DNA of 38,268 bases from Paraglomus brasilianum (Eukaryota). Under the pieces are notes generated by a model, which was not told the origin of the DNA, searched no databases, and was given only the letters and a program-made list of their open reading frames with translations. Both the position numbers and the translations under genes were made by a program. The stretch covers positions 1 through 38,268 of the forward strand of contig CAJVPI010000260.1 in NCBI GenBank assembly GCA_910592345.1, in the 5' to 3' direction. Of this stretch, positions 6,880-38,268 are shown in pieces (positions within the stretch are counted from its first letter, which is position 1; the number at the start of each line of letters is the position of its first letter).

Positions 6880-8006
6880 GACAGAAACTATTAAACGTTA
6901 AAAAAGAACAAGGTTAAACTTATATTGTGTGACGTCGTCGATCATTTCAAATTGATTGGGATCAGCCAATGGGGGATCTGAGCGTATTAACAATATTAAT
7001 ACTTAATATGGTTAATTGATAAATTACACAAAAAAATAGATTTGAGCACATAGTATCTTCTAATATTCTATTACTACACCCCAAATGCGATATGAGAAAA
7101 CTATTGTAAAATCAATAAAATATTTCCTGCTTGAAAAAGCTTCTCTTTTAGTTGTGGAAATGAATTTCGCAGTCAGACTCTCACGGATGGCTATGCGTAT
7201 TGCAAATCTTAAACATAGAAGCATGGTTTACGATATTCAAAAATTGATTAATATCAAAGAACGTATTCTTAATAGTAACGCACTTTACATTATGCGTGAC
7301 ATGTACAGTAAAAACATTTAATTAATGGCAAAAATGTTAGTCAGATGCAACTTTCTTTTTTTTTATACAGTCTCTGGCTATTTGTTAACTACAACCTCAA
7401 TGTTATAAAGCAATCGTACTGAAGCATTTAATGCATTGGAGTTACAAAATAACAACCCTTGTTCGGTTACCATTAATTTTGTCTATTGCAATTGCAGCAT
7501 CCTACCGAACAGTCTTATTAAACGCAGCAAGGGTTAATTGAATATTAATTCTATTGATACAACAATCGAAGCCAATATCCTGACTACGTACTTATTGGCA
7601 ATACGCTTAAAACTGGTGAAATGTCTTAAAATTGAAAATTGCGACAATAAAGAATCAGCCCGAGGAAGACAAAGTTATGCAATTTCTTCAACAGAAGGTA
7701 ATTATTATGGTGAATAGTTGATAAATATATCTCTCATTTTACTGAACTGATGGCACGGATGGAGATAAACTTTATAGAAAACTTTAGAAAAAATTAGTTG
7801 GCAAATGTTTGTGTGTTCTCTGATCTGAAATAAGTCTGTTTACATAATTGACTTGCTTGTATAAATAACGCGCCTGTTAAACTGTTATAGGCCCATATAA
7901 GAGAAAACATCCCCCACGCTTGTTAGGCAACAACACTGAAAATTTCCAGCATATTGCATACTAAATCTCTACCGTTCTAAAAATTCATAAACGCACTATG
8001 ATTATA

Positions 8007-8214
8007 TGGGGCATGCTGCAACAAAACCAGACAAAGTGAACATTCAATTATGTGACATAAATGAGGGGCTGGTTATGATGTGGCTGTAAAATTGACCAGT
8101 GTAACTGATGGCATTTTGAAAAGTAATAATGGTGCTCATTCATAACTTATGGACTTGTTAATTTTAATGTTTCCTTTATCATACCAGAATGTGATGAATA
8201 TAAACCATAACAGG
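8007..8214 (+). repeat. Repeat family A end sequence (left arm of inverted repeat)
   Basis: 8073-8214 matches the reverse complement of 13224-13371 (about 5 substitutions, one 7-nt and one 1-nt indel). 8007-8090 matches 21653-21729. Confidence 0.92.
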
Positions 8215-8652
8215 GTGTTACGGCAAGCCGATCTGATGAATCAGATAAGTAAGTCACATGATAAAATCTTCCTCCGCGATCACACATCAAATAGCACAAG
8301 TTAAATTAGTAGCGGCGTTTCGAAATTTCTGCGGCAGGCGCAGCGTTTCAATTTTTCTGCGACAGCACAAGACGCCATAATTCATTTATACTTATTTCAA
8401 TTGATCTTCATAGAATTAGTAGTCTAAAAAGCGTTTCACTTTTTTTGTGATGCTGAAGATATATAAGCAGCTCAATTTCCATCGTATGAAATGTGAAATA
8501 TGTTACAATGTTTGAATGTTGAATAAATAAAATATTATTGATCTTAGTAATATTCCTTTATTATAAATATACGGTTTATTTCTATCGTCGAAATAATTGA
8601 TTATTAGACCGGATACTCCAATAAACGGCTCACTTAAGCTGTAATGGAATAG

Positions 8653-8801
8653 TGTTGTGTCTGAGTTGGGGACCTGTCTCAGTTCGGAACCCAGTCACTC
8701 AGTCCAGAACTCAGTTGTCTCGGTTCGGAACCCAGTCACTCAGTCCAGAACTCAGTTGTCTCAGTCTAGAACTGAGACAGGTCCCCAACTGAGGTACAAC
8801 A
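8653..8801. mobile_element. MITE-like element with 32-bp TIRs and an internal ~39-bp tandem duplication
   Basis: 5' TGTTGTGTCTGAGTTGGGGACCTGTCTCAGTT versus reverse complement of the 3' end TGTTGTACCTCAGTTGGGGACCTGTCTCAGTT (29/32). Second copy at 25699-25814. No clear TSD. Confidence 0.85.
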
Positions 8802-11028
8802 GCATTAATCAGTGGACGCCTGATTGTAATTATTATTTGCCATATGTGTCAGTAGTACAAGCGAGTGATATGGGGAAGTCTGCAATGGTCAAATTGATTT
8901 CTGACAGAGTTTTTGTTGTATACTGTTGTTTGAGGAATGTGCAACAAGAATTAGATCTAGGCTATCCAAAACGGTCCAGTATCACCCCAATCTTGTTGCT
9001 TGATCATAAGTTGACAAAAACGTCAGATAATGGGGATGAAATTTCTGTTCATCCAGAAAACATTCATCTGCTATTTCTGGGTGCTTGTATAGATTTGCTG
9101 GCCACATCATCAAAGACGCCGTCGGAATGGTTTTACTTTCAAAAAGATCATTCTTTTTGGTCACGGATTCAGGCATTGATGGAGGAATTGAAGAATGAAA
9201 TCCCAGAGCTTCAATATGAAACATCACTGCAAGACGAAAGACTCTCATCGGAATTCCTGTTAACTAAATGGAAAAATTTATGTAACACACCACATTTTAC
9301 GAAAGATTTTTGACTCATCTTTGTTTATGATGAATGTTGCAGTCTTGTCGAGAAAGATATTTTTTACATGCTTGTCGAGCTTTCAGAGCACTACCAAGAA
9401 TGGAATCTGTATCATCTTTATTTGTTATAGTTATGGATACACTCTCACGGATTTCTAATTTTTCTCCAACAAAATGTTATGAACCTTCAACACATGCTTC
9501 AGTCTCACAGATGCGACTTTTTCCACCATATTATCTTCTTGACTTTGTTGACATTTTTGTTCCTCAGACATCTCCGACAACCTTAAGTGAGTTTGCAAAA
9601 CCTGATCACTGGATGCTTTATGGGCAACCACTGTGGGGAGCTTTAGTACAGGCACAACAAACCAAAGAAGATCTGAAAAATAAATATCCACTGTTGGATA
9701 TTTTACTAATGGCTGCTGGTAAACTTATTGGTGGAGTTGATTTTCATAATTGGTTTTCAAATTATAAGATAAAAAATGAAAGAGTTACACCCTTGGTTGC
9801 TATTGCTGTATTGGGTCAGAGAGTTGCACTCAACATAATACCACAGTCAGAGATTGCAATGGAATTAGTAGCAAGTGCTATTACTATGCGAGTTTGTCTA
9901 CATATTACAGAAGATCGTGGAACTATCCTATCAACATACTTGTCTGAGCCAACTTTAAGTGAGGCTGCTGCATATATCATGAACATTGACAATGGGTTAC
10001 TTGTACCAGATCTGCTGACTATGTTAATCAATAGTATCAAAGAAGGAGTTGCAGAGGCCAGTTATCATGGTGAATTAGTAGCACGTTTTCTCTTACTTTT
10101 GGCATATGATTATGCCTATAGTCAGTTTATAGCAAATGTGTCATATTTTCCTGGCTATTATTCACAAGTCATCACTGTGCAACAATTCTTGCAGGCCTTA
10201 CTGGATTATGAGACTTTTAACCTAATTGCAACAGATATTTCCACCAGTAAACCCAATACATCAGCACCACTAGGTGAAGGTTATATACAGTTCAATCACT
10301 TTGTTTCAATAACCTACACACCTTCAAGAAAGCAATTGTTGAAATTCTTAGAACGAGGAGCTGCTGTATTATGCAAACATAACCAATGTGGTGTAGACAT
10401 TATCATACCAGTGTTACTAGAGCCTGGAGGAAGGATGAATATCAATAATATAACCTACATTCTTGTGCAAGTCAAAAACTGGAGACATACACCATCACAA
10501 CATCAAGTCCAAGAAGCTTCAAGAATGAAACTCTCACCTGAGTTTGCTGGAATTACCACACAACATTTATTACCTTATTTGTCTCTCTATTTGCAACTGG
10601 GTGGTGAGAAATGCACAGCACACATTGTGGAAGATATTGGTATTTTACCAGAAGTTGACCAACTGCATAAATTAGTTTTATCAGAACCCAATTTATTGAA
10701 ACGTCCAGCTGACAATGCAGAAATTCCCTTGAAAAGAGTCAAAATTGGCAGAAAAAAACGCTATCCATCAGATACATCAGTTTTTTCTGTGATATGTCAG
10801 ACTTTCCAAGTGTCATTAGCTGTTTATGGTCTTGGAAAAGAGGTGTATGCTTGTTTCAATCATTTCACAGCCATTGAGACCCAAACACAGATTTTAACAT
10901 CTCTGAGAAAGCTCTTGGTTGCCTGGCCTGATGCAGCTGAACTTGAGAATGATAGTAAACATGTACAACATATGCAACCATTAGTATATGTTGATGCAGT
11001 CAATAATAGTGACAATAATATTTTGTAG
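8802..11028 (+). pseudogene. Intronless P-loop NTPase plus C-terminal PD-(D/E)xK (REase-fold) nuclease gene, Crinkler/CR-effector-like architecture; disrupted
   Basis: YYLPYVSVVQASDMGKS (degenerate Walker A, 8858-8881); Walker B LIFVYDE directly after in-frame TGA 9311-9313; frameshift near 9355-9365; later YGQPLWGA, YLSEPTL, GELVARFLLL, FNHFV and nuclease motif GVDIIIPV...ILVQVKN. Confidence 0.78.
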
Positions 11029-11513
11029 CTGTCATTATGATAAGAATATTCTTATACCATGTCTTTGCAATTAAATATTAAAGATTAGATTGTATTACAA
11101 TATTCTGATATCAAATTCAATTCTGAGTATGACTTCTGGAGCAGTATTATTTGCCTGGCATTATATATTGGAATAAAACAGCAGTCTAAAGAAAAGCAAA
11201 ACACTATGTTTGTACCTTGTCAATTTTAATTGATATTAATATCACAATTTGCTTATCAATCATACTTTACACAAATCATGGCATTTACATAACCTGTAAA
11301 GGAGATGTAATACAGAGATGTGCATCAAGATAAAAGAGTGACTTTTTGGATAATTTATTCGATTTAAAAAGTTTGATAAATGCAAGTAACTTGAGATTTT
11401 AGAGTGATATTAACCACTCGAATTGCTTCTCTCCTTTTAGCAAGAAAATTGAAAATACTAATCCAAAGATAGGTTTACAAAGTATTAAAACTTATATATA
11501 GGATTACCCGTAT

Positions 11514-12601
11514 ATGATAAATAACGAATATAATGGCTCCACCAAACATGAAAAAGCAATACGTTTCTTGGAGACAGGTTGCAATTGTGGTTGCTCAAAA
11601 ATGATTCCGAGAGAGAAGTTTGCTGAATTACGTGAGGCGTTTCAAGCTCTCTCTAGATCCGAACAAGATATATTTTTAATGGCCCAGTTGAAAGCAATGA
11701 ATGGCGGAGAAATAACTGCCAGCTGACGTCTTAAAAAAAATGCGTACTAATAAGCGAACATTCTACTATTGAGATCGTAATACATCTCTTTGCCAGAAAA
11801 CGTATCTTAATATGTTAGGAATTGTCGCACTCACTTCGAAAACGTCAGAAATCACCTAGCGACAAATGGTATCGTACCGGGCGTTCATGGTAATATAAAA
11901 CGAATGCCGCGATGGAAAACCAAAATCACCATTGATATAACCGTTGCTACTGCCATGAAAAATTTTCTCGAAAATTATGCTGAAATTCATGGATTACCAA
12001 GTCCGGGTAGAATTGTCAATCGCATTACTCAATTGCTTACACTTCTGCCAGCTGAAACAAGTTGCAAATCGGTCTATCGTGATTTTATTGCAGGCCTCGA
12101 AAACGATAGCGCGTTGAAATTGTTAAAATATGATGCATTTCGCAAGTTATGGCACCAATTAACGCCTTATATTCAAATAATGAGTCCAAGAACGGATTTA
12201 TGTGACACGTGCCAACATTTCCGGAATGGCTTACAATATAATGCTCGTAAGGAAGAAGAGGCAAGAGACTTACTAAAGAAATTCAAAGAACATCTGGTTA
12301 AGGCTAAATTAGAGAGAAATTATTACAACAAAAAGACGAAATTAGCAGAACAACAGAGGAAATTGGTAAATGAACATTTTATAGCAAGAGGTAAAGCTGG
12401 TTATTGTAGCGTTGACGCTACTGCTCATTACAGTTACGATTGAGCGCAAAACGTTCACGTTCCCCATTCCGATCAACAAGTAAGATTTATTATCTTAGTC
12501 CGCGTAAAGTGCATTTATTTGGTATACAAGATGAAGCAGTGCGCGAACAAATTAATTATGTTCTCGATGAAGACGAAATTATCGGCAAAGGTCCTAATGG
12601 T
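11514..12601 (+). mobile_element. Sola1-like (DUF7869-type) DDD transposase, 5' part, truncated at GKGPNG
   Basis: GCNCGCS, VHGN, HGLPSPG, PRTDLCDTC, HYSYD(W)AQN (first catalytic D), YYLSPRKVHLFGI, DEDEIIGKGPN; several frameshifts and TGA codons. Confidence 0.8.
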
Positions 12602-12878
12602 AAAGAATTTACTGAAGACGGAATTGTTAAATACTATACTAAAAAGTTAGGAGGACAAAATCATGTTCAGAAGAAGTATGAAAGCCCTTTGAGGATCAGC
12701 AACAAGAAGTGTTCTGAACTTGAAAAAATCCTCTGGCTATCTTATCAGTAATTGGATTGCTTTCATGGCCGGAGGACTGGTGTGAGCTATTCTGAGCCGG
12801 AAAAAAATAGCTTCTTGATGAAATCAACCTGCTGAAGCCAAAAGTGATGAATTTGATAATGATGAGGAAGAATGGTAG
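12602..12878 (+). pseudogene. 3' fragment of a single-pass membrane protein gene readable with TGA=Trp (code 4); putative Mollicutes-related endobacterial origin
   Basis: With two 1-nt repairs in homopolymers (~12682, ~12762) and TGA=W: KEFTEDGIVKYYTKKLGGQNHVQKKYEKPFEDQQQEVFWTWKNPLAILSVIGLLFMAGGLVWAILSRKKIASWWNQPAEAKSDEFDNDEEEW*. TGA at 12715, 12721, 12783, 12816, 12819. Confidence 0.65.
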
Positions 12879-12928
12879 ATAAAGTTGCTGGAAACACAAA
12901 AAAGGTGTTCTAATAATGATTTGATTGT

Positions 12929-13186
12929 TTATTCTGCCAGTCTTCTTTTCTTTATTGGTTCACCATAAGTTGGCGTTAATGCTCGTTTAGTAGTTATGAT
13001 TTTCCGTTCCTCTTGATAAATTTCATAAGTGGTTTTTTCTTGATCTAGATATTGCTGGAGCATTTGGGTATCATTGATTTTGAAAACATAAGGGGCAATT
13101 TTTTCTCCTTGAGCTTTCTTTAGGATGCTTCTAATAGTGCTGTAATTCTTTGGTTCCATGGTGGATTTAATGTAGATTAGTTTCAT
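12929..13186 (-). CDS. Small 85-aa hypothetical protein with C-terminal basic motif PIKKRRL
   Basis: Intact ATG-to-TAA intronless ORF; paralogous decayed copy at 21756-21988 differs mostly at synonymous positions. Confidence 0.65.
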   Translation of the reverse strand: MKLIYIKSTMEPKNYSTIRSILKKAQGEKIAPYVFKINDTQMLQQYLDQEKTTYEIYQEERKIITTKRALTPTYGEPIKKRRLAE

Positions 13187-13223
13187 ATTAATATTTTTTA
13201 TATAGGGATAATCCTATATTAAT

Positions 13224-13371
13224 CCTGTTATGGTTTATATTCATCACATTCTGGTATGATAAAGTGAACATTAAAATTAACAAGTCCATAAATTATGAAT
13301 GAGCACATTATTACTTTTCAAAACGTCATCAGTCACACTGTACACTGGTCAATTTTACAGCCACATCATAA
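13224..13371 (-). repeat. Repeat family A end sequence (right arm of inverted repeat, outer ~65 bp missing)
   Basis: Reverse complement of 8073-8214. Confidence 0.92.
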
Positions 13372-15526
13372 TATATTACAACCAACAGTCATCGGATCGA
13401 ATGATTCAATACATGCGTAGTAACTACGTATATTAATAATATTACTGTTCACAAGTAGAAATAGTTTACCTCACAAAAATCAAATAAATCGTGCGCATCA
13501 ACTACCGTCTTTTACCATTTATTTGTCGTCAGTTCTAACCAATCTGCTACCCGCGTGCATCATGATGTGATAACGTCGTCTCTCGTATGTTTGTCAATCG
13601 AGAATATTCCGTCCATTGTATATGTTTCATGCCATTGCTAGTCCATTCATTGGATAATTATTTACGTCGAACAACTTTCTATCAGCAACCAGATAATAGC
13701 TGCCATCATATTCGGTAACCTTATCATGCTATTGCATACCCGCCTGTTAGAAGTGAGTATTTTCTGGCAAACTCACTCATTACTTACTGCTGGTGTATGG
13801 TTTTCAACGCTTCAAAGTAAAAGAATCATCTCTTTATAAATTCCAGCTTACAGTGGATTATTTGTGTCAACTTGGCCATATTTTGAATGAGGAATGCCCA
13901 AGGAGATTACTTAACAGTCTTCGTACTCATAATCGCGACACCAATTTAACAACTACGTGTTGACTCTTTTCGCAGCATACAATGTGAAGTTGACGTTCAG
14001 CCACATTTCTTTACTAGTTCGTTTTTAGCAAATTGTGCGTCATAGTCAGTAAATATTGTATTGAAATGCGTAATGTTTACAAACAAGTTTATGGAAATTG
14101 GTATGTTTTTCTAGCGCTCGTTCATAACTGCGTAAATTAACAAAAATAGCAATGTATTCCGAACAAAATAAACTATAAATGGTTAGCACTAAAATGCTCG
14201 CTCAAATTCAACAAGTTCTCAGTTTGACCAATTCAGACTAAAAACTATTTTACGTATCTGGGAATGTAAACAGCGATTGTACAAGTTCTCTGCTTGGGCG
14301 GATATACCACTCATACTTGTAATATTGTTGACTAATGATTATTAAGTGTCAAGAATGGCCCGGACGTTTTTCCTTAAACGGTTAGTTCAGCGAAAAATCA
14401 AAAACCAGCCCTTTCGCATGGCGCAGTAGGACTAGAATCGATGAGGCTAGCTAAATACAATGATTTGTGGAGTTGCATTGCTATTGTGTCATTAACTATC
14501 CATTTCCTACGCCCATGTTGCGGTGTTTATTTCCTTCTTTAGTTGCATAAATGTGTTCATTACTATTGTAAGACTACCATACCAGCAAAATGATATTACT
14601 ATTTAGTAATGCCATTCTACACACGTATTGTTTAAAGCGTGTTGTCAAAATGATGAAAGCATGAGCATTTTAATATTAAATCGGCCTTGATAACAGCGTT
14701 GCCTGTTTGCTGCTATATAATTAATATGACGCGACTAATTGTACAATACTCGTGATAAAAGTTATTTTACCTTGCCAAGTACATAATACTTAAGTAGTTA
14801 GATCAAGTGTTAAGCAGAGTCTGAGTTTCATAATATCTATCAAGATTACTATTAATTATTGGTATTCATATTAAAATGAATGTGACGATCGACAAAAGCT
14901 TCGGAAACTCGTGAAAACGGTTTCAGAAAGCAAATTCCTTGAGTAACTATTCCAATAGGACGTCTCAACCAGATCATCTACCGATGATCTTGAGAATCAG
15001 ACTTGTGACTGCATCTCTTTATGCCGTTTTAAACGATAGAATCCGCTGGCCAATCATCAAGTTGCGTTCAATTGACAAATGATCCACAACTCGCGAAACA
15101 CTTCTCCAATATATCATTTCAAATAACAACATTTTAATATTCACATCCAATGCCTGTGGATACTTTTATAAATAAATAAATGCTCACTAAAAGTTGTTCA
15201 TTTATACAATATCAAAATATACTCTAGCTTTGGTTTTTACATTAAAGCCGGTTAAAATAATATCACAAATAATGTAATGCAAAATAATACAATTAAACTT
15301 TAAGAATCTGTCTATCTGCATCAAATGGCACATCTCGAAATTCTCTCATACGGAACAACGAAGACGTAGAATTATAGAAATATGATGGAAAAATACAAGT
15401 GACAATACATTGAACACATCGATTACACCATATTATCCCAACAAATAATCAACCGCCCATCTCTGTCATTAACACCTGTCACTTGATATAATTAATTCTT
15501 GTTATAATGAAGCCAGTAAACTAAAT

Positions 15527-18500: not shown

Positions 18501-20068
18501 CAGTCGGAATAGTCATTGTCTACTTGAAACAGCTACCCATATTATAACCGTGAATTAATTTTTAGACTCACCTGCTCTAGTCTCCTTGGGCAAGTGATAC
18601 TGTAGCAAACATTCTCTCGCGTACATGTCGGCGAATAACAGTCAGTCAATAGCGTGAATACACCGTTGGGTAGATCAGCTTCTTGCGCTTCCGCTTCATT
18701 AGATGCCTCATCAAAATTACCTGGAGAAGACATGATGGAAGGCATTCTATGAAATTGATACAATTCGTTTGGAGAGTCGCGAAGACGGTGGTCGTAAGTA
18801 ACATCATGGAAAAACTTTTGGGCATCTAATGCGCGACCGAGCAACAACGCCAGATTTCTGTCTGTTGTTTTGATGATAAAAGCTATAGCTTCCTGTTGAG
18901 ATCAATTGGATGCAGGAAAAAAAAAGGGTGATTATCACAATGTCAACTATCTGAAATACAAGTCGTTACACATGCATACCACAGCATCTTTCCCATCAAA
19001 ACAATCTTTGTATTCTATGTCGTCTTTAGTTTTCGTTGACATGATTATCCTGTGACGGAACGTCTCTGCCACTCTAGAGAGTAGGGCAGGATATACCATC
19101 GGAATGCGCGATATTGAATACGGAGTTTTCGGAGACACCGTAGTGCTCGATGACTCCGATGATGATACATCAGAGAATGTGATTGATCGGTGGCGCTGAT
19201 GTTCGACGTGACTAGCGGATACAGATCTCTTCTCCCTTCTGGGGATGTTATCTGAACGAGCAGGTATAATGAGACCGGGTCCTAAAGAAAGTGATTAAAG
19301 GTTATGAACAAAGTATATTCCGGGATTGATGTCCCTATGGTCTTCCTATAATAATGTAAATTCTTGCATCATAATATCAACTCTCTTTTTTTTTCCCGTA
19401 TCTTCACACTTGTAATCCTATCAAATCATTGTATTCCCAAAAAACTATATCTATTTTTCATGACAAAATTTCTCGCGGCAATTGTTAAGCTCAATGACTC
19501 GTTCAAAACTTTCCAATCCATTCCTGACTATCATCATAAAATGGGAAGCATGTACATACCGTTTATGGTATTTGAACGATTAAAATTGGTACTTATTAGA
19601 GGTACATTAGAATTGGTTGGCTGTATACGGCCTGCCGTGGACATTGATCTTGTAGCGGATGGGTGAATGCGCTGAGAATGGATCTCAAGCTGTGGAGGAG
19701 ACTTGGCCTGTGCCAGCTGTTGATAATTCTGATATGTCGGAATAGAATGCTGGGGAAGATACATAGACTGGTGACTATGTCCATTATAATGCGAGTACCT
19801 TAGATGCTCGTGAGAAACCGAGTGAGTGAGAGGTGTGTACGAGTGAGAGGAGTGAGAGGAGTGAGAGCGATGTTGTTGAGGGTGGTGAGAACTGTATTGC
19901 GACGAGCGATTTATTGCACGCGTATATGACTGGTAGCGTTGCGGCAGTTGCTGTTGGTGCTGCTGTTGATGCTGCTGCTGCTGCTGTTGTTGTTGTCGTT
20001 GTTGCTGTTGTTGCTGTTGTTGTTGTTGTTGCTGTTGTTGTCGTTGTTGCTGTTGTTGTCGTTGTTGC

Positions 20069-20114
<46 letters not shown>

Positions 20115-20358
20115 GCTGCTGCTGCTGTTGTTGCTGCAGTAGTGATGGAGGTGGTATTGAAGGAGGTGGTATTGAGGGCGGTGGGAATTGGGGTGGTAGC
20201 CGTGGTTGAGACGATAGTTGAGAAGTGAGAGATGTAAATTCGTCATATATCGAAGTTTCTAAGCTTGTGGGACTTTCTGGAGAGTGTGGTTGATATGGGG
20301 TATAACTCCTTGGCCCACGCGGTCTCCGCATCTCGAAATCGTCATAGTGAGCACTCAT
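15527..20358 (-). CDS. ROM2: Rho1 guanine nucleotide exchange factor (ROM1/ROM2/Rgf1 family): low-complexity N-terminus, DEP, DH, PH and CNH domains; multi-exon
   Basis: VYPALLSRVAETF, DGKDAV, LLGRALDAQKFFHDVTYDHRLRDS (DEP); GVFTLLTDCYSPTC; EKKRQEAINEVIYTEKDFVRDL (DH); PIPLQLL..YPITFTYIGKKG (PH); YPYILAFEASLIEVRN (CNH). Start codon tentative because a possible splice acceptor lies just upstream. Confidence 0.93.
19945..20138 (-). repeat. CAA/CAG trinucleotide repeat encoding a polyglutamine tract of about 60 residues
   Basis: (TGT/TGC)n on the plus strand, in frame in the ROM2-like first exon, with Arg/His interruptions. Confidence 0.95.
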
Positions 20359-21652: not shown

Positions 21653-21988
21653 TGGGGCAGGCTGCAACAAAACCAGACAAAGTGAACATTTGATTATGTA
21701 ACATAAATGAGAGGCTGATGTGGCTGAAAGTTAACTCTATAAAAATAAAATATATAAACTAATTTACATTAAATCCACTATGGAACCGAAGAATTACAGC
21801 ACCATTAGAAGTATTTTAAGAAAGCTCGAGGAGAAAAAATTGCTTCATACTCAATGATACCCAAACTCTCCAGGAATATCTAGATGAAGAAAAATTTACT
21901 TATGAAATTTATCAAGAAGAACGAAAAATAGCGTTCATTAACAGCAGCTGATAATGAACCAAGAAAAAAACGAAAGCTAGAAACGTAA
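21653..21988 (+). repeat. Third copy of repeat family A: end sequence (internally deleted) plus decayed copy of the 85-aa ORF
   Basis: TGGGGCAGGCTGCAACAAAACCAGACAAAGTGAAC matches 8007 onward; KLIYIKSTMEPKNYSTIRSIL...PRKKRKLET* matches ORF 12929-13186, with frameshifts and a damaged first ATG. Confidence 0.88.
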
Positions 21989-22689
21989 AATAAATAGGTG
22001 CTTTCTTACTATCATTGGGATTATTATTAATAAAGACATCAAATTCAAGACAAATTTTTTCATTGGTTCTTTGTCGACATATTCATCCGACTTTTATTCT
22101 TACAAACCAATCCAAACTTTAGGAGACGATGATGCGTTTGTTTATTTGTATCAAAGACTGTTTAATCCGTAACCGTAGCGTATTTTAATGTTACCTGATG
22201 AACTCATTATAAAAATAACACGACCTGCACTTGTATTTTAACTCAGAAGAATCAAATCATAAAATCATTCCAGTATTGATATCGAAATAATTTATTCGAT
22301 AAAAAAACTTGCAAACAACAAACGATTCAAAAAATGCTTGTTTTTATTATTCAATTCTTTTGCGGGTTGTTGATCGGAATTATCCTTGATCTCTCGCTCC
22401 ACTATGAAATGCATAATCAACTTGATAATATGAACGAAAAGCTTGAGATAACAGTTCAAGCAGTTAAATCTAAAGTAAACGTTCATTGAACGACATTATT
22501 CGTTCAGCATTGACATGTGTTAATCCAGCAAAATCCTTTAAGATTAAACTTTTGTGCATATGAATTTATATTTCCAAGCAATATACGTGGTATTTTACAC
22601 TTACTGTTACTCTAATTTAACATTAACCTCCGTTATACCTTTGTGCATGATTAGACTATTATTATACTGACTAAACCTCGTCATACTTT

Positions 22690-25698: not shown

Positions 25699-25814
25699 AT
25701 TGGGGACCTGTCTCAGTTCTGGACTGAGTGTCTGGGTTCTGGACTGAGACAACTGAGTCCTGGACTGAGTGACTGGGTTCCGAACTGAGACAGGTCCCAA
25801 ACTCAGACACAACA
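25699..25814. mobile_element. Second, inverted copy of the 8653-8801 MITE
   Basis: TTGGGGACCTGTCTCAGTT...AACTGAGACAGGTCCCAAACTCAGACACAACA; one TIR lacks its outer bases. Confidence 0.85.
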
Positions 25815-26812: not shown

Positions 26813-27300
26813 AGTGCATTTATTTGGTATTCAAGATGAAGCAGTACGCGAGCAAATTAACTATGTTCTCGATGAAGACGAAATTATCGGCAAAAGCCCT
26901 AATGGCACGCTGAGCATGGTATTCGATGGGATTAAGAGATTGAATAAAGGCGAAAAACGTCTAAAGATTACTTGTGATAATGCGGGGGGACAGAATAAAA
27001 ATAACGCCACTACTTGATTTTATTTGTATTTGGTTATCTGCGGCTATTATGAAAATATTGAATTAAATTTTATGGTACCTGTACACACTAAATTCAAGTG
27101 TGATGGTAGTTTTGGATTAATTAAAAAACTATACCGCAAAACAACAGTGGATTGCGTGAATCATATTGTTGAGGTTGTGAAAAGATCAAGTACAGCCGGA
27201 TTAAATAAATATCAGCGTTATGATAACGGAAAAGTTTTCAATACAAAAATATAAGCATTTTTTATTTAAAGCAGCCAATCCTGGAGTCGCCAAAACCCAA
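26813..27300 (+). mobile_element. Second Sola1-like transposase fragment (catalytic core)
   Basis: VHLFGIQDEAVREQINYVLDEDEIIGK is near-identical to 12509-12600; continues ITCDNAGGQNKNNATT(W)FYLYL, FMVPVHTKFKCDGSFGLIK, HFLFKAANPG. Confidence 0.85.
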
Positions 27301-30300
27301 CTGGTCCCGTAACGTAGAATCATAATATACGCGACAAAAGATTGTTTCCCTTTGCAACAAAATAATATTATTCACACAACATAGCTTTTTCCGTGGAAGA
27401 ACTTTGTGCCAGTTAATTTGCTTTTATGGAAATTAGTTAAACTTCTCACTCGCCTTACCTCTGTTAAATATTTGAGACATTGTAGCAATTAAGTACACTT
27501 TATTCCAGGTCGTTTAGCGATGTTCTGTGCTGGCAGAGTAGGGAATAACGGTCTCTGTATATTATAAGTTCCAGAACCAAGAGCTTAATTAGATTCTTTT
27601 CGGATATTTTGTAAGTACAAATTATCGAATAAATAAAACAGGTTTCAAATGTAATTAAATTACTTGCTGATACCGAGTATCCATGGACACAGGAATAATA
27701 ATATTAATTAAACCGTGAATTTTATTAATTTTACATCCCCGTGGCGGACTTATAATGTGAGCTTCACCATTCACACAATTGATCTTTGTTACCAAAAATT
27801 AACAATAATATGGACGAATCAAGCGACAAGCATTTATTACTCTTCTCTTCAAAATCCAGCTGTTCCTTTTTGGACTTCTGGGAAAGACCAATAAATGCTT
27901 GTTAAGGTAAAGGATAAATTAGAATTGGGAAATGAGAAAGACAGCGCTATATCTTCTTCTCTAAAGTTTTGATAATCATAATCTATTAAAACACATTAAG
28001 CTCATAGTAAGCGACCTGCTAAATTACCCAAAATCAAAGTAAATTTTGATTACAAGTACAGAATTATTAGTACATACATAGTTATATATAGTATAGTTCC
28101 AATTGGACTGTATTAATGCTATTTCATGACATTGCATGCTTACTTACAAGTTGGTTCCATTCTTTTGTTAATTCTTATTCTGCTTTAACTCACTAGTAAT
28201 TCCCCAATAAAAGCTTTGATTAATAAGGGTATACCATTTTCTATTTTCCATTACTTGCCTAATCTTGACTGATGCTTTGGAACATTATTCTCAAAATTTA
28301 GTATCTCCAAGCAAAAACCCTTTTCACGAATGCATACTAGTGTTAGCTTGCCAAACCTGAAACGGAGAATCTTAAAGGATGCTTTACAGAATAAACATTA
28401 ATGAAAGTGATCTCGTCTGTAAATTACTTTAAGACTATTATACACCTTTTACTCTGCTGATGTTTCCAATGTTTACAATTTTGTATCATTTATGGAGTGA
28501 GTAGTAAAGACATTTTCAGGGGTCAAGTTTGAAAATTTATACACTTGATAAAGACAGTTTGCAAACTTGTGTAGGGTACCATTCGTTCAAATCACTTATT
28601 CAAGTGTCTTTCTTTTTATCGCCGAGGTCTCAAACGGGTTACTATTATCATATTACAAAACCTGTAAATAGGTGAAAGGATGGACAAGTGAGAACCCAGA
28701 TCGATAATGAGACATACAAGCAGAATATCTGCCAGGAAAATCAATGTTATTGATTAGAAGATAAACCACCAAAATGCTAACTACATTTTCAAACCACTCA
28801 CTTCACTCGATGGTTAAACAAAGATGAAATATCATACTATTTCCGTTCACTTTGTTTGCAGCATGCGAAAAAGACCGGATCTACATCAGTCAGCCCGTTC
28901 AATTATATGTCATTCGTATTGATACTTTGTGTTCAATTAACCAAAAGGGCGAGTATAAACCTTAGGGGCAAAAGGCATCATAACAAAGTTAAGTTTCAGC
29001 TCCTAATTTTCCAAGGTTCAGCGCGTGAATAGTGTGGGAATATCTGTGATCGCAGCCCGTTCAGTAAATTGATCAGTATCACAGTCTTTCTGTTTTGGCT
29101 AACAATTTCACCATCCTTTTTTAGGCAAATACCTATCGACAATCAACAGGCAGTTGACATCCTAGAATCTTATCGATCTTACGTGTGGGACATATCATCA
29201 TGCGGACACTAGCCAAAAAGTGGGGATGGAGAATATGTAAATTGTTTGTTGAAGCTACGTATAGACATTGATCTTTCTTATTTATTACTAAAATAATGCG
29301 AATTTTCGTATCTATGTGTGCTATCTAACCAGGCGAGTATTTATACGTTGTAATTAATGACAACTGTCAAGGTATCGAAAAAAGCTATATGGAATTTCGG
29401 TATTTCTAAAAAAAAACCAAACTAAAATTAACTAGACGATCAATTTCGGAAGATCGCTCGACGTCATTCAGGTTGACTATTTCAACAAGATACCTCCACC
29501 TAAAGCAATCTCTCTAGCCCATTCAAACAGTCTGAATGTGCAAGAGGTAAAGCAACTAATACTTGAATAGAAAACCTTATTTCGTTGCCATTGATAGATA
29601 GTGTGACATCATTGTGCATGTGTTTAATATTAGATTTTCTAAATTAGGGAATGTGTCATGCATGTACAATTATAGAGTCGCTTCCCCGATCCAGCGAAAT
29701 TGCGCCATAATTGTTGAAACTTTGACTATACCGAAGACAGAGCCAATAAAAAAGTCATAAATACTTGCATGAACCTGTCTCTCCGCAAAACGTGCCGATC
29801 AGACCAAATAATTATGCGGAGAACACATTCATGTTTACTTTGTTATAGAATTGTATATTAAGGCTTTGATGCTATGAAACAAACACACAACCTTTGCATT
29901 TCATCCATCTGACAGCTTTTTTATGTATTCTCTTTCCTCTACTTTCGATTTTCTCGCTTTGTGGCCGTCTACTTTTTCCAACCGTAAACTCGCCTTTTGA
30001 TTCGTATGTGAGCACGTCGTTTCGTTGCGAAATTGTGAAAGTAGTACAAACCCCTAATCTTAAATCCTCTTTGGCGGAGATTGTTACCAATTTGGGCGAT
30101 TTGAGACACACGTTGAACGTTTTGTAGAATAAATAGTCGCGGGAACCGAAAAGGTCGAGCGGGCATTTTTAAGTGTCTTCCTTTGTATAAAGAAAAAAGC
30201 AAGAAGAAATAAACGATAACCAAGTAATTAAGCCATGCACTAGTATGTATTATTACTGCATTTAATTCCTACAACTTGCGTAAAATCAGGTCTCAATTAA

Positions 30301-36506: not shown

Positions 36507-38268
36507 ATGTCATTAGTTCCAAGGATTAATAATCCAGTAATTGACAACTTGGTTCAATCCTCCTCAAGACTTGAATGGATTCATTACGAGGAAATCACCA
36601 ACATAAAACCAACTCAAATTGACAACGTCTATTCTGCTGTTCACAGTGATCGCATGGTAGTACTGGTATTCCTTGGAAATGATGAAATATGTACACTTGT
36701 AAGTGAGTTTGCTAGAATATACTCACTTCCAACACACGAATACAACAATGATGTCAGTCAATTTAGACGATATTCCAAATGGCTTAGCAGTCGCAACAAT
36801 CTCATAAAGGGATTTACCAAGCATGACGACAACTATTGCATGGTTGCTGATGAACCCTTTTACCATTATTATTCTCTCTATGGGTTCTGCTCCGCATGTG
36901 GAATACTCTGATGTAGTCCAGTGTGGTGCATTTGCGGACATAAGGAATTATCTGATGGATGGACTAGCAACAATAAGCAACTCGACGAGTTTATCAAGAA
37001 ATCTCAATTACAAACAAACTCTGCAAATGATGCCTATTTGGAATGGATTCCATTTGATTGTATTCATGAATATGGACACTTGTATGGACTACCTACTCGT
37101 ATATATGTTGAATTGATTCCACTTGAGATAACAGACGAGACACATTATTTATATTATGCCGAGGTAAACTATTTACTTATGCGTCATGTTTATTGAATAG
37201 TTTAGGCGATTATTGACTTATGTATCATTTCCACTAGTTATGTGATAAGCATCCGGATATTCTTACCACGGATGTTTGGGTTACCATCGGATTCACATAT
37301 GATACACATAAACAAGAGTATTGTCTGATAAAACGTGAGGATGGCTTATGTCTGGGGTGTGCAAGTCAATTAAACCCCAAGATAAATCTATTCTCTTATG
37401 AATGTAAAGCACCAAGACCTGCTGATTGGACGACTGGCAACAAGTCTTTGGATTCATTTCTAATAAAGTCGTGGAGTAATATGAAGTATATATTCGATGC
37501 GTACATACAATGGATTGAATACTGTCTATTGACAAACATACAAGAGATGACATCATTACGCCATGGATGCACACATATAGCAGAATGGACAACAAATGAA
37601 TTGACAAGTGTGACACTCAAAAAGATAGTTGAAGGGGATGATCAGTTATTTGATTTTCATCAGGTAAATTATTTCACGCGTAAAATGCAAGTAGTATTAC
37701 TAACGTGTGTATCAAGCAGATTATTGTTGTAACGACTGTATTTGTTTACTCAAACAGCTAACTAAGGAATATCCAGAGATATTAACACCCGAGAATATTT
37801 GGATAATTGGGATTGCTCAGAAGCCATCTACTCGAGAATATTATTTAGTTTTCTACCACGACGTACATGCACTATTGGACAAGTTTATACAACTTAACGA
37901 TGATATTGAATACATAAAGTATAGCGACTTTTACGAGCTCAAAGAGATCGGATCTGGTGGTTATGGAACCGTTTATACTGCCAACTATAACAAGTATTCA
38001 GCAGAAGAGTATCAGAATATACCATCAACTGTTGTATTCAAACGGTTTAAGAGTTTTAATGAAACGCCAGAATTATTTATTTCCGAGGTAAGCAATAATT
38101 GATAGTATTAATTAAAGTGATATTTAATTTGACACTGTATTTGTTTCTATTCAACATAATCCTTTCCTTAAAATTTATGGAGTGACACAAGACCCAGAAA
38201 CAAAAGAGTACGTGATTGTTATGCAATATGCTAACAATGGTAGTCTTTTGTCTTATTTGGATCAAAAT
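36507..38268 (+). pseudogene. Tyrosine-kinase-like kinase with repeated degenerate N-lobe modules, probably disrupted; runs off the window
   Basis: EIGSGGYGTVY, VVFKRF, IYGVTQDPETKEYVIVMQYANNGSL; introns after 37163, 37663 and 38087; in-frame TGA 36909-36911 within CSACGIL*CSPVWCIC; no usable AG acceptor before HNPFLKIYG. Confidence 0.8.

Follow-up and report, generated by a model that had tools for sequence, protein, structure and literature searches.

A decayed Sola1-like transposon with cargo, written mostly in endobacterial code, in DNA of Paraglomus brasilianum

Described transposons and gene exchange

Pack-MULEs and Starships hold variable captured genes between their termini, and the genome paper on Diversispora epigaea reportedly describes transfers between fungus and endobacteria (MRE). 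Sola1 transposons are described in the accessible part of PMC3845634 as preferring AWWT targets, and Sola1/Sola elements are reported in Rhizophagus in the accessible parts of PMC5751038 and PMC11075540. According to the accessible sections of PMC10507103 and PMC4916391, genes common to Glomeromycotina and MRE include kinases, and mobile elements are numerous in MRE; within the accessible main text of PMC10507103, the string "transpos" occurs 0 times. Literature searches listed no description of a UGA-coded eukaryotic-type transposon in these fungi, and the MRE mobile-element and genome papers with their supplements may list such elements.

The stretch of DNA analysed here, hereafter the window, is 38,268 nucleotides long. 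The exons flanking the element belong to septin and RhoGEF genes, and the host, judged from its sequence, is a fungus. The RhoGEF gene has a long CAA/CAG repeat (poly-Gln) towards its 5' end, at 19900-20200. A sequence-only reading had singled out a short fragment in code 4 (TGA for Trp) as endobacterial DNA inserted on its own between ordinary host genes. The fragment proves instead to be cargo of a TIR transposon, and its left border is apparently an internal deletion joint.

The window element and its code-4 fragment

The window element is a decayed, dead Sola1-like (DUF7869) TIR transposon with cargo, mostly in endobacterial code. Its left TIR arm (8008..8214, + strand) starts with GGGGCA, shares 78-94% identity with metagenome TIR arms and presumably pairs with the rest of this element; the ATAT 4-mer directly outside it (8004..8007, + strand) is the likely target site. 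The right TIR (13224..13372, - strand) retains the inner part, with the outer ~65 bp including the GGGGCA end missing, and window positions 8073-8214 and 13224-13371 show 91% inverted identity. A 564-codon standard-code ORF (9334..11028, + strand) of low depth separates the left TIR from the transposase; it has 5 TGG and 0 TGA codons and matches no Pfam or NCBIfam family, and CRN-like is a candidate label for it. Contigs in runs X2, X4, X6 and X11 connect this ORF to the transposase start (10400-11541 in X2, 10719-11542 in X6), and no contig covers the entire element.

The transposase start is overlapped by a 20-nt imperfect palindrome (11496..11515, + strand), which has an inverted twin before the terminal ORF; the arms of this region, 11496-11523 and 13192-13219, are 86% identical, and the palindrome is absent from the five MRE-family genomes searched. 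The DUF7869 DDE-type transposase (11514..12602, + strand) is dead and comprises the 5' 60% of the gene, with 89-91% identity to the copies at loci L013, L017, L021 and L057. It has TGA at Trp codons 11770 and 12441 and frameshifts after 11736, 11823 and 12477, and it ends cut at 12602. The last seven nucleotides, AATGGTA (12596..12602, + strand), occur in both an intact transposase (L017) and an intact cargo gene (L024), and this microhomology suggests that an internal deletion was joined here. The code-4 fragment follows, and then the 85-aa terminal ORF P0001 (12929..13186, - strand), which is present in both arms of the family. TIR and transposase thus surround the fragment, which does not lie in a bacterial segment devoid of transposon termini.

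The window also contains another left arm of this family in a decayed state (21654..22513, + strand), with TIR, P0001-like ORF and ORF-B-like remnant, and a second transposase fragment (26813..27306, + strand), which is 87-89% identical to L013, L017 and L021 and has TGA at the conserved NATxWFY column. A hairpin-shaped short repeat with 38-nt arms and high soil-run depth occurs in two copies, at 8648-8806 and 25712-25814, and is a probable MITE nested in the left arm. Other repeats with raised depth lie next to both arms (8215-8650 and 13373-13900), and 13458-13621 is repeated in inverted orientation at 37505-37675. Named relatives of the element proteins are found in Dentiscutata, Funneliformis, Ambispora and Gigaspora assemblies.

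Homolog alignment identifies the fragment (12603..12916, + strand) as the 3' end of a cargo gene in code 4, with 79% DNA identity to L023 and L040. The soil-metagenome loci L023, L024, L038, L040 and L045 contain homologs of this gene end, four of which lie in long open code-4 frames. A search using one frame of the fragment gave no match. The five in-frame TGA codons that had been noted at Trp positions are present (12715, 12721, 12783, 12816 and 12819); a sixth TGA is out of frame and was excluded from the count. The matching Trp columns in the intact homologs of L023, L024, L040 and L045 carry TGA in 4/4, 2/4, 4/4, 4/4 and 4/4 sequences. Because intact homologs share these columns, the TGA codons were inherited and not produced by chance or local decay, and the earlier preference for recoding over G-to-A hypermutation is borne out, those homologs being under selection.

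The alignment also places the two single-base losses that had been proposed. The first indeed falls in a homopolymer, the A-run at 12681-12683, and related copies in runs X6 and X10 have the extra A at 12680; the second, near 12761-12764, need not be located in one. The TGG TAG at 12873-12878, formerly read as the gene end, exists in the sequence but is probably the product of a third frameshift, since a neighbouring frame stays open as far as TAA TAA at 12911-12916, the place at which the homologs end. The extra tail of the fragment has homologs in 0 of 88 loci.

A membrane helix had likewise been predicted. The two helix pieces of the fragment have mean hydropathies of 1.99 and 2.08, and each of the intact homologs P0176 and P0387 contains a single hydrophobic stretch, at the C-terminus, in agreement with the prediction. 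P0387, a full-length relative of the parent of the fragment, has 1008 aa, so that the parent was not the small membrane protein that had been envisaged. By comparison with these homologs, the fragment comprises the final ~100 codons of a cargo gene for a tail-anchored protein of ~1000 aa.

Contigs from runs X2 (12573-12940) and X4 (12573-12948), which may be the source sample, show 0 differences and 0 gaps against the window. Over the 349 bp of 12592-12940, run X5, from soil in another study, differs at 1 position and has 0 gaps, which supports the earlier view of real, non-chimeric DNA in a fungal context. The joint at 12602 never has at least 31 letters on both sides in any of the contigs listed, the short side being 30 in X2 and X4 and 11 in X5.

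The element family and its two codes

The family loci are the best 80 out of 213 matches that P0001 gave in metagenomes, and locus counts are not independent events, as L013/L057 and L017/L018/L021 are near-copies. The family terminus starts with GGGGCA and, among the matches listed, the preceding 4-mer is ATAT in 27 of 42 TIR flanks and AWWT in 34 of 42. Some of these loci share one insertion, and a duplicated 4-mer on both sides of an element was not seen; no locus had both ends of one element. Within the best 80 of 213, P0001 is followed by ORF-B (29 loci) or by code-4 cargo, of which four families were tested and 26 matches obtained (loci, and the window where matching), L017 and L018 having both kinds. 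Transposase and P0001 share a contig in 11 of these 80 loci. The order is transposase, cargo, P0001 in L013 and L017, and P0001, ORF-B remnant, kinase, transposase in the left arm of L072. The family anatomy is TIR and terminal ORF, variable standard-code genes, transposase, code-4 cargo, and again terminal ORF and TIR.

The standard-code gene directly upstream of the transposase differs per copy, with kinase genes in L017 and L072 and genes without family assignment in L013, L021 and the window. In L017 (4422-4757), L018 (2809-3144) and L021 (4517-4852), two members stand tail to tail, ~335 bp apart with the same spacer, and a right arm faces the left arm of the neighbouring member.

Outside the TIRs, matches to a DDE_3 transposase, a PIF1 helicase and a Ser/Thr/Tyr kinase were obtained in 3 of the 11 flank loci scanned. 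All flanks that could be recognised are eukaryotic-type by these family matches; an MRE chromosome was recognised in 0 of 21 TIR flanks of at least 200 bp, most flanks having no Pfam match. L016 (1-305) and L052 (42-1195) have the identical insertion site inside a PIF1-like helicase, a probable Helitron. The kinase beyond the terminus at L051 (1-474) has TGA at a usually conserved Trp; it could be a fungal gene in decay or, alternatively, a kinase that an MRE replicon encodes in code 4.

The L013 transposase matches Pfam PF25273 (DUF7869) with an E value of 1.4e-15, and D309, D388 and D430 are kept in at least 90% of 35 alignment rows, as in a DDE(D) RNase H-type enzyme. Its predicted model has a pLDDT of 85, and the nearest folds are IstA, TnsB and integrases, at E 9.6e-4 and weaker with low TM. 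We take DUF7869 to be the link to Sola. The transposases of L013, L017 and L021 span 591-593 codons with TGA as the sole stop type. Three of five Trp columns mix TGA and TGG, two have TGA in all copies, and TAG never occurs. With dN/dS at 0.045-0.10 for dS of 0.33-1.8 (L013, L017, L021, L057, L072), TGA and TGG interchange at these Trp columns under purifying selection. Private synonymous and non-synonymous changes number 19:13 in the window transposase versus 24:7, 27:11 and 18:4 in intact copies.

A fungal origin is suggested by a quick tree, left unrooted, that places the code-4 transposases together with a protein of Gigaspora margarita (SH-aLRT 99); it is suggested only, because other relatives, at 33-36%, include sequences of a sponge, a clam and Thermodesulfobacteriota MAGs. 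The P0181 cluster comprises 98 full-length DUF7869 transposases, including Desulfobulbaceae and Thermodesulfobacteriota MAG proteins, and this eukaryotic-type family may be active in free-living bacteria too.

The aligned Trp codons of the four cargo families are TGA over TGG by 60:5, 38:4, 41:11 and 28:3 (167:23 in total), versus 3:45 in the left-arm ORF-B, where the TGG count depends on two columns in related sequences and the alignment excludes L071 and L033 for internal stops. The Fisher p value of 1e-27 for this difference ignores relatedness and is overstated. Median dN/dS is 0.21-0.47 for the cargo and 0.12 for P0001, from pairs with dS of 0.05-1.5 only, and dN/dS of ORF-B is 0.14-0.42. 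Two codes are thus used by genes of a single element family, and by these ratios both classes are under purifying selection. The cargo codon usage correlates with that of MRE G001 at r = 0.97, of DhMRE at 0.83 and of the host exons (657 codons) at 0.59, AT-richness contributing to these values. GC3 is 0.21 in the cargo, 0.36 in ORF-B and 0.38 in the host; DhMRE itself uses TGG for 74 of its 220 Trp codons.

Links to MRE, explanations and known systems

Two MRE genomes were found via a 16S primer from 10.1101/2023.07.25.550273, and the DhMRE family consists of five genomes. P0001 has 836 homologs, and its profile matches DhMRE alone, 1 of 399 Mycoplasmatales genomes, at E 1.3e-23 with 47% identity over 81 aa. 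Pattern searches with P0001 found no match in genomes and viral contigs, and a cluster search returned only the clusters of the element family itself; we regard the pattern blanks as insensitive because the profile search did find the DhMRE homolog. The readings of P0001 as an unrelated MRE insert and as a purely fungal ORF were both dropped.

An antitoxin gene usually stands directly upstream of its toxin gene. The DhMRE homolog of P0001 is directly upstream of a PemK/MazF toxin gene (Pfam PF02452) and is a putative antitoxin. The two genes, at L088 (1501-2174), lie beside a type III restriction res gene and are a candidate for an unannotated toxin-antitoxin pair in DhMRE.

For the cargo tail there is a weak match to a single DhMRE protein, with E values of 3.7e-5 and 3.3e-4 (1 of 298 Mycoplasmatales genomes; 44% over 36 aa). 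For the sequence-only reading, which had compared the WWN-P-acidic ending with MRE proteins and advised a code-4 search, this is a mixed result: the preceding 36-40 residues (EGF..NNP, helix, RK) give the weak DhMRE match at E 3.3e-4, but the ending itself has no MRE match. The endobacterial affinity it had proposed for the fragment is nonetheless supported. The N-terminus of ORF-B also weakly matches a DhMRE ORF (E 1.2e-4). Cargo bodies gave weak or no matches in MRE-family genomes, none convincing, and the weak ones of alignments A3 (G004) and A4 (G003) were excluded from support. Full-length P0387 occurs in 0 of the 5 DhMRE-family genomes, and DUF7869 is above cut-off in 0 of 298 Mycoplasmatales genomes. 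The TIR arm has no real match in MRE-family genomes, one in G003 being rejected as AT-rich noise.

We consider it probable that the fragment is the 3' end of the right-arm cargo of a cut-and-paste transposon, Sola1-like and decayed, within fungal DNA, that the transposase and right-arm cargo are likely translated in MRE, and that copies likely reach the nucleus from there. Translation in MRE is put as no more than likely, since the transposase was not found in the five DhMRE-family genomes; among relatives it was found in 0 of 61, a small sample. MRE ribosomes would translate the transposase, which would recognise the GGGGCA termini and insert at AWWT sites, and copies would pass from MRE to the fungal nucleus. 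Nuclear copies would be unable to make the transposase, as the first UGA lies near codon 90, and could only decay or be mobilised in trans. In the window copy, a microhomology deletion would have removed the 3' part of the transposase and most of the cargo.

It is unlikely that the element is confined to the nucleus, with host ribosomes reading UGA as Trp through a suppressor tRNA or strong read-through and with MRE genes captured in the past. Such an element would fit the recognised flanks, every one of which is eukaryotic-type, the summed contig depth, which lies orders above that of the flanks (this is not copy number), and the result that no copy was found inside an MRE replicon among five DhMRE-family genomes and 61 relatives, again a small sample. 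However, 3-4 UGA per transposase and 15 in 476 cargo codons would need decoding in a host where TGG is exclusive in exons (5:0) and in left-arm genes (22:0), tRNA genes occur in 0 of 58 loci scanned, and the cargo is under selection with MRE-like codon usage.

The chance is similarly small that the code-4 phase takes place elsewhere, whether in a virus-like replicon of the cytoplasm, in a plasmid of the mitochondria, or in an MRE plasmid or phage that the chromosome assemblies lack. The element is absent from the MRE chromosomes searched and many fungal mitochondria use code 4, both of which agree with such a replicon; yet P0001 has a clear DhMRE homolog, 72,556 plasmids gave no match, viral contigs matched neither TIR nor P0001 (the P0001 pattern search being insensitive), and mitochondrial families were none among the flank ORFs scanned.

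Passive integration of a one-off piece of endobacterial chromosome between host genes might account for a low-depth, code-4 fragment in a fungal contig, but is very improbable. The same placement, with cargo and P0001, recurs in L023, L024, L038, L040 and L045, transposase, other cargo and P0001 are combined in L013 and L017, and the left border is a microhomology joint; the shared element anatomy largely refutes this reading. G-to-A decay of a fungal gene, or an assembly chimera, is scarcely credible in spite of the decayed window copy with its three transposase frameshifts and 19:13 private changes and of the 12602 joint with its short spans, given the identical TGA positions in intact, selected homologs and the same allele across the joint in a run from another study.

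With a decayed transposon translated in MRE as the preferred reading, its lineage may, on weaker grounds, also have a standard-code (nuclear) phase, proposed because the left-arm ORF-B retains TGG and is under selection; traffic would then go both ways. We tentatively extend this to a two-kingdom shuttle, a somewhat doubtful proposal, in which a fungal Sola-like element colonised the endobacterium, its transposase was recoded to UGA=Trp, and it now moves back and forth between MRE and fungal nucleus, the bacterium expressing one arm and the fungus the other. If true, the shuttle would be the vehicle, in both directions, of the known gene exchange between fungus and MRE. A selected transposase in a code unlike that of the surrounding genes implies either that its active phase is extranuclear or that the host decodes UGA, and both would be surprising. 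As a testable proposal, genes could flow between arbuscular mycorrhizal fungi and their endobacteria with this family as the vehicle. For annotation, gene callers split such genes or skip TGA codons (P0178, P0179), and screens may mistake nuclear copies for MRE contamination.

Compared with Pack-MULEs and Starships, the family here has a different transposase and draws its cargo from two kingdoms and two codes. As with the Wolbachia-type inserts and NUMTs of PMC3673617, in its accessible part, bacterial-code DNA decays in a nuclear genome; those are passive fragments, whereas the present family has termini that are defined, prefers certain targets, exists in many divergent copies and encodes a transposase under selection. 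The accessible parts of PMC10507103 and PMC4916391 treat fungus-MRE transfer without naming a vehicle, and here MRE-type genes are found in nuclear DNA inside a eukaryotic-type transposon. The element resembles Sola1, in the accessible descriptions of PMC3845634 and PMC5751038, in its ~590-aa DDE-type transposase, TIRs starting with GG and AWWT preference. It differs from Sola1, the features of which are taken from descriptions, in the TGA for Trp within its transposase, the long arms holding an MRE-related ORF and the variable two-code cargo. What is newly seen against known Sola1-like transposons is a family that, as far as its codons tell, is written largely in endobacterial code.
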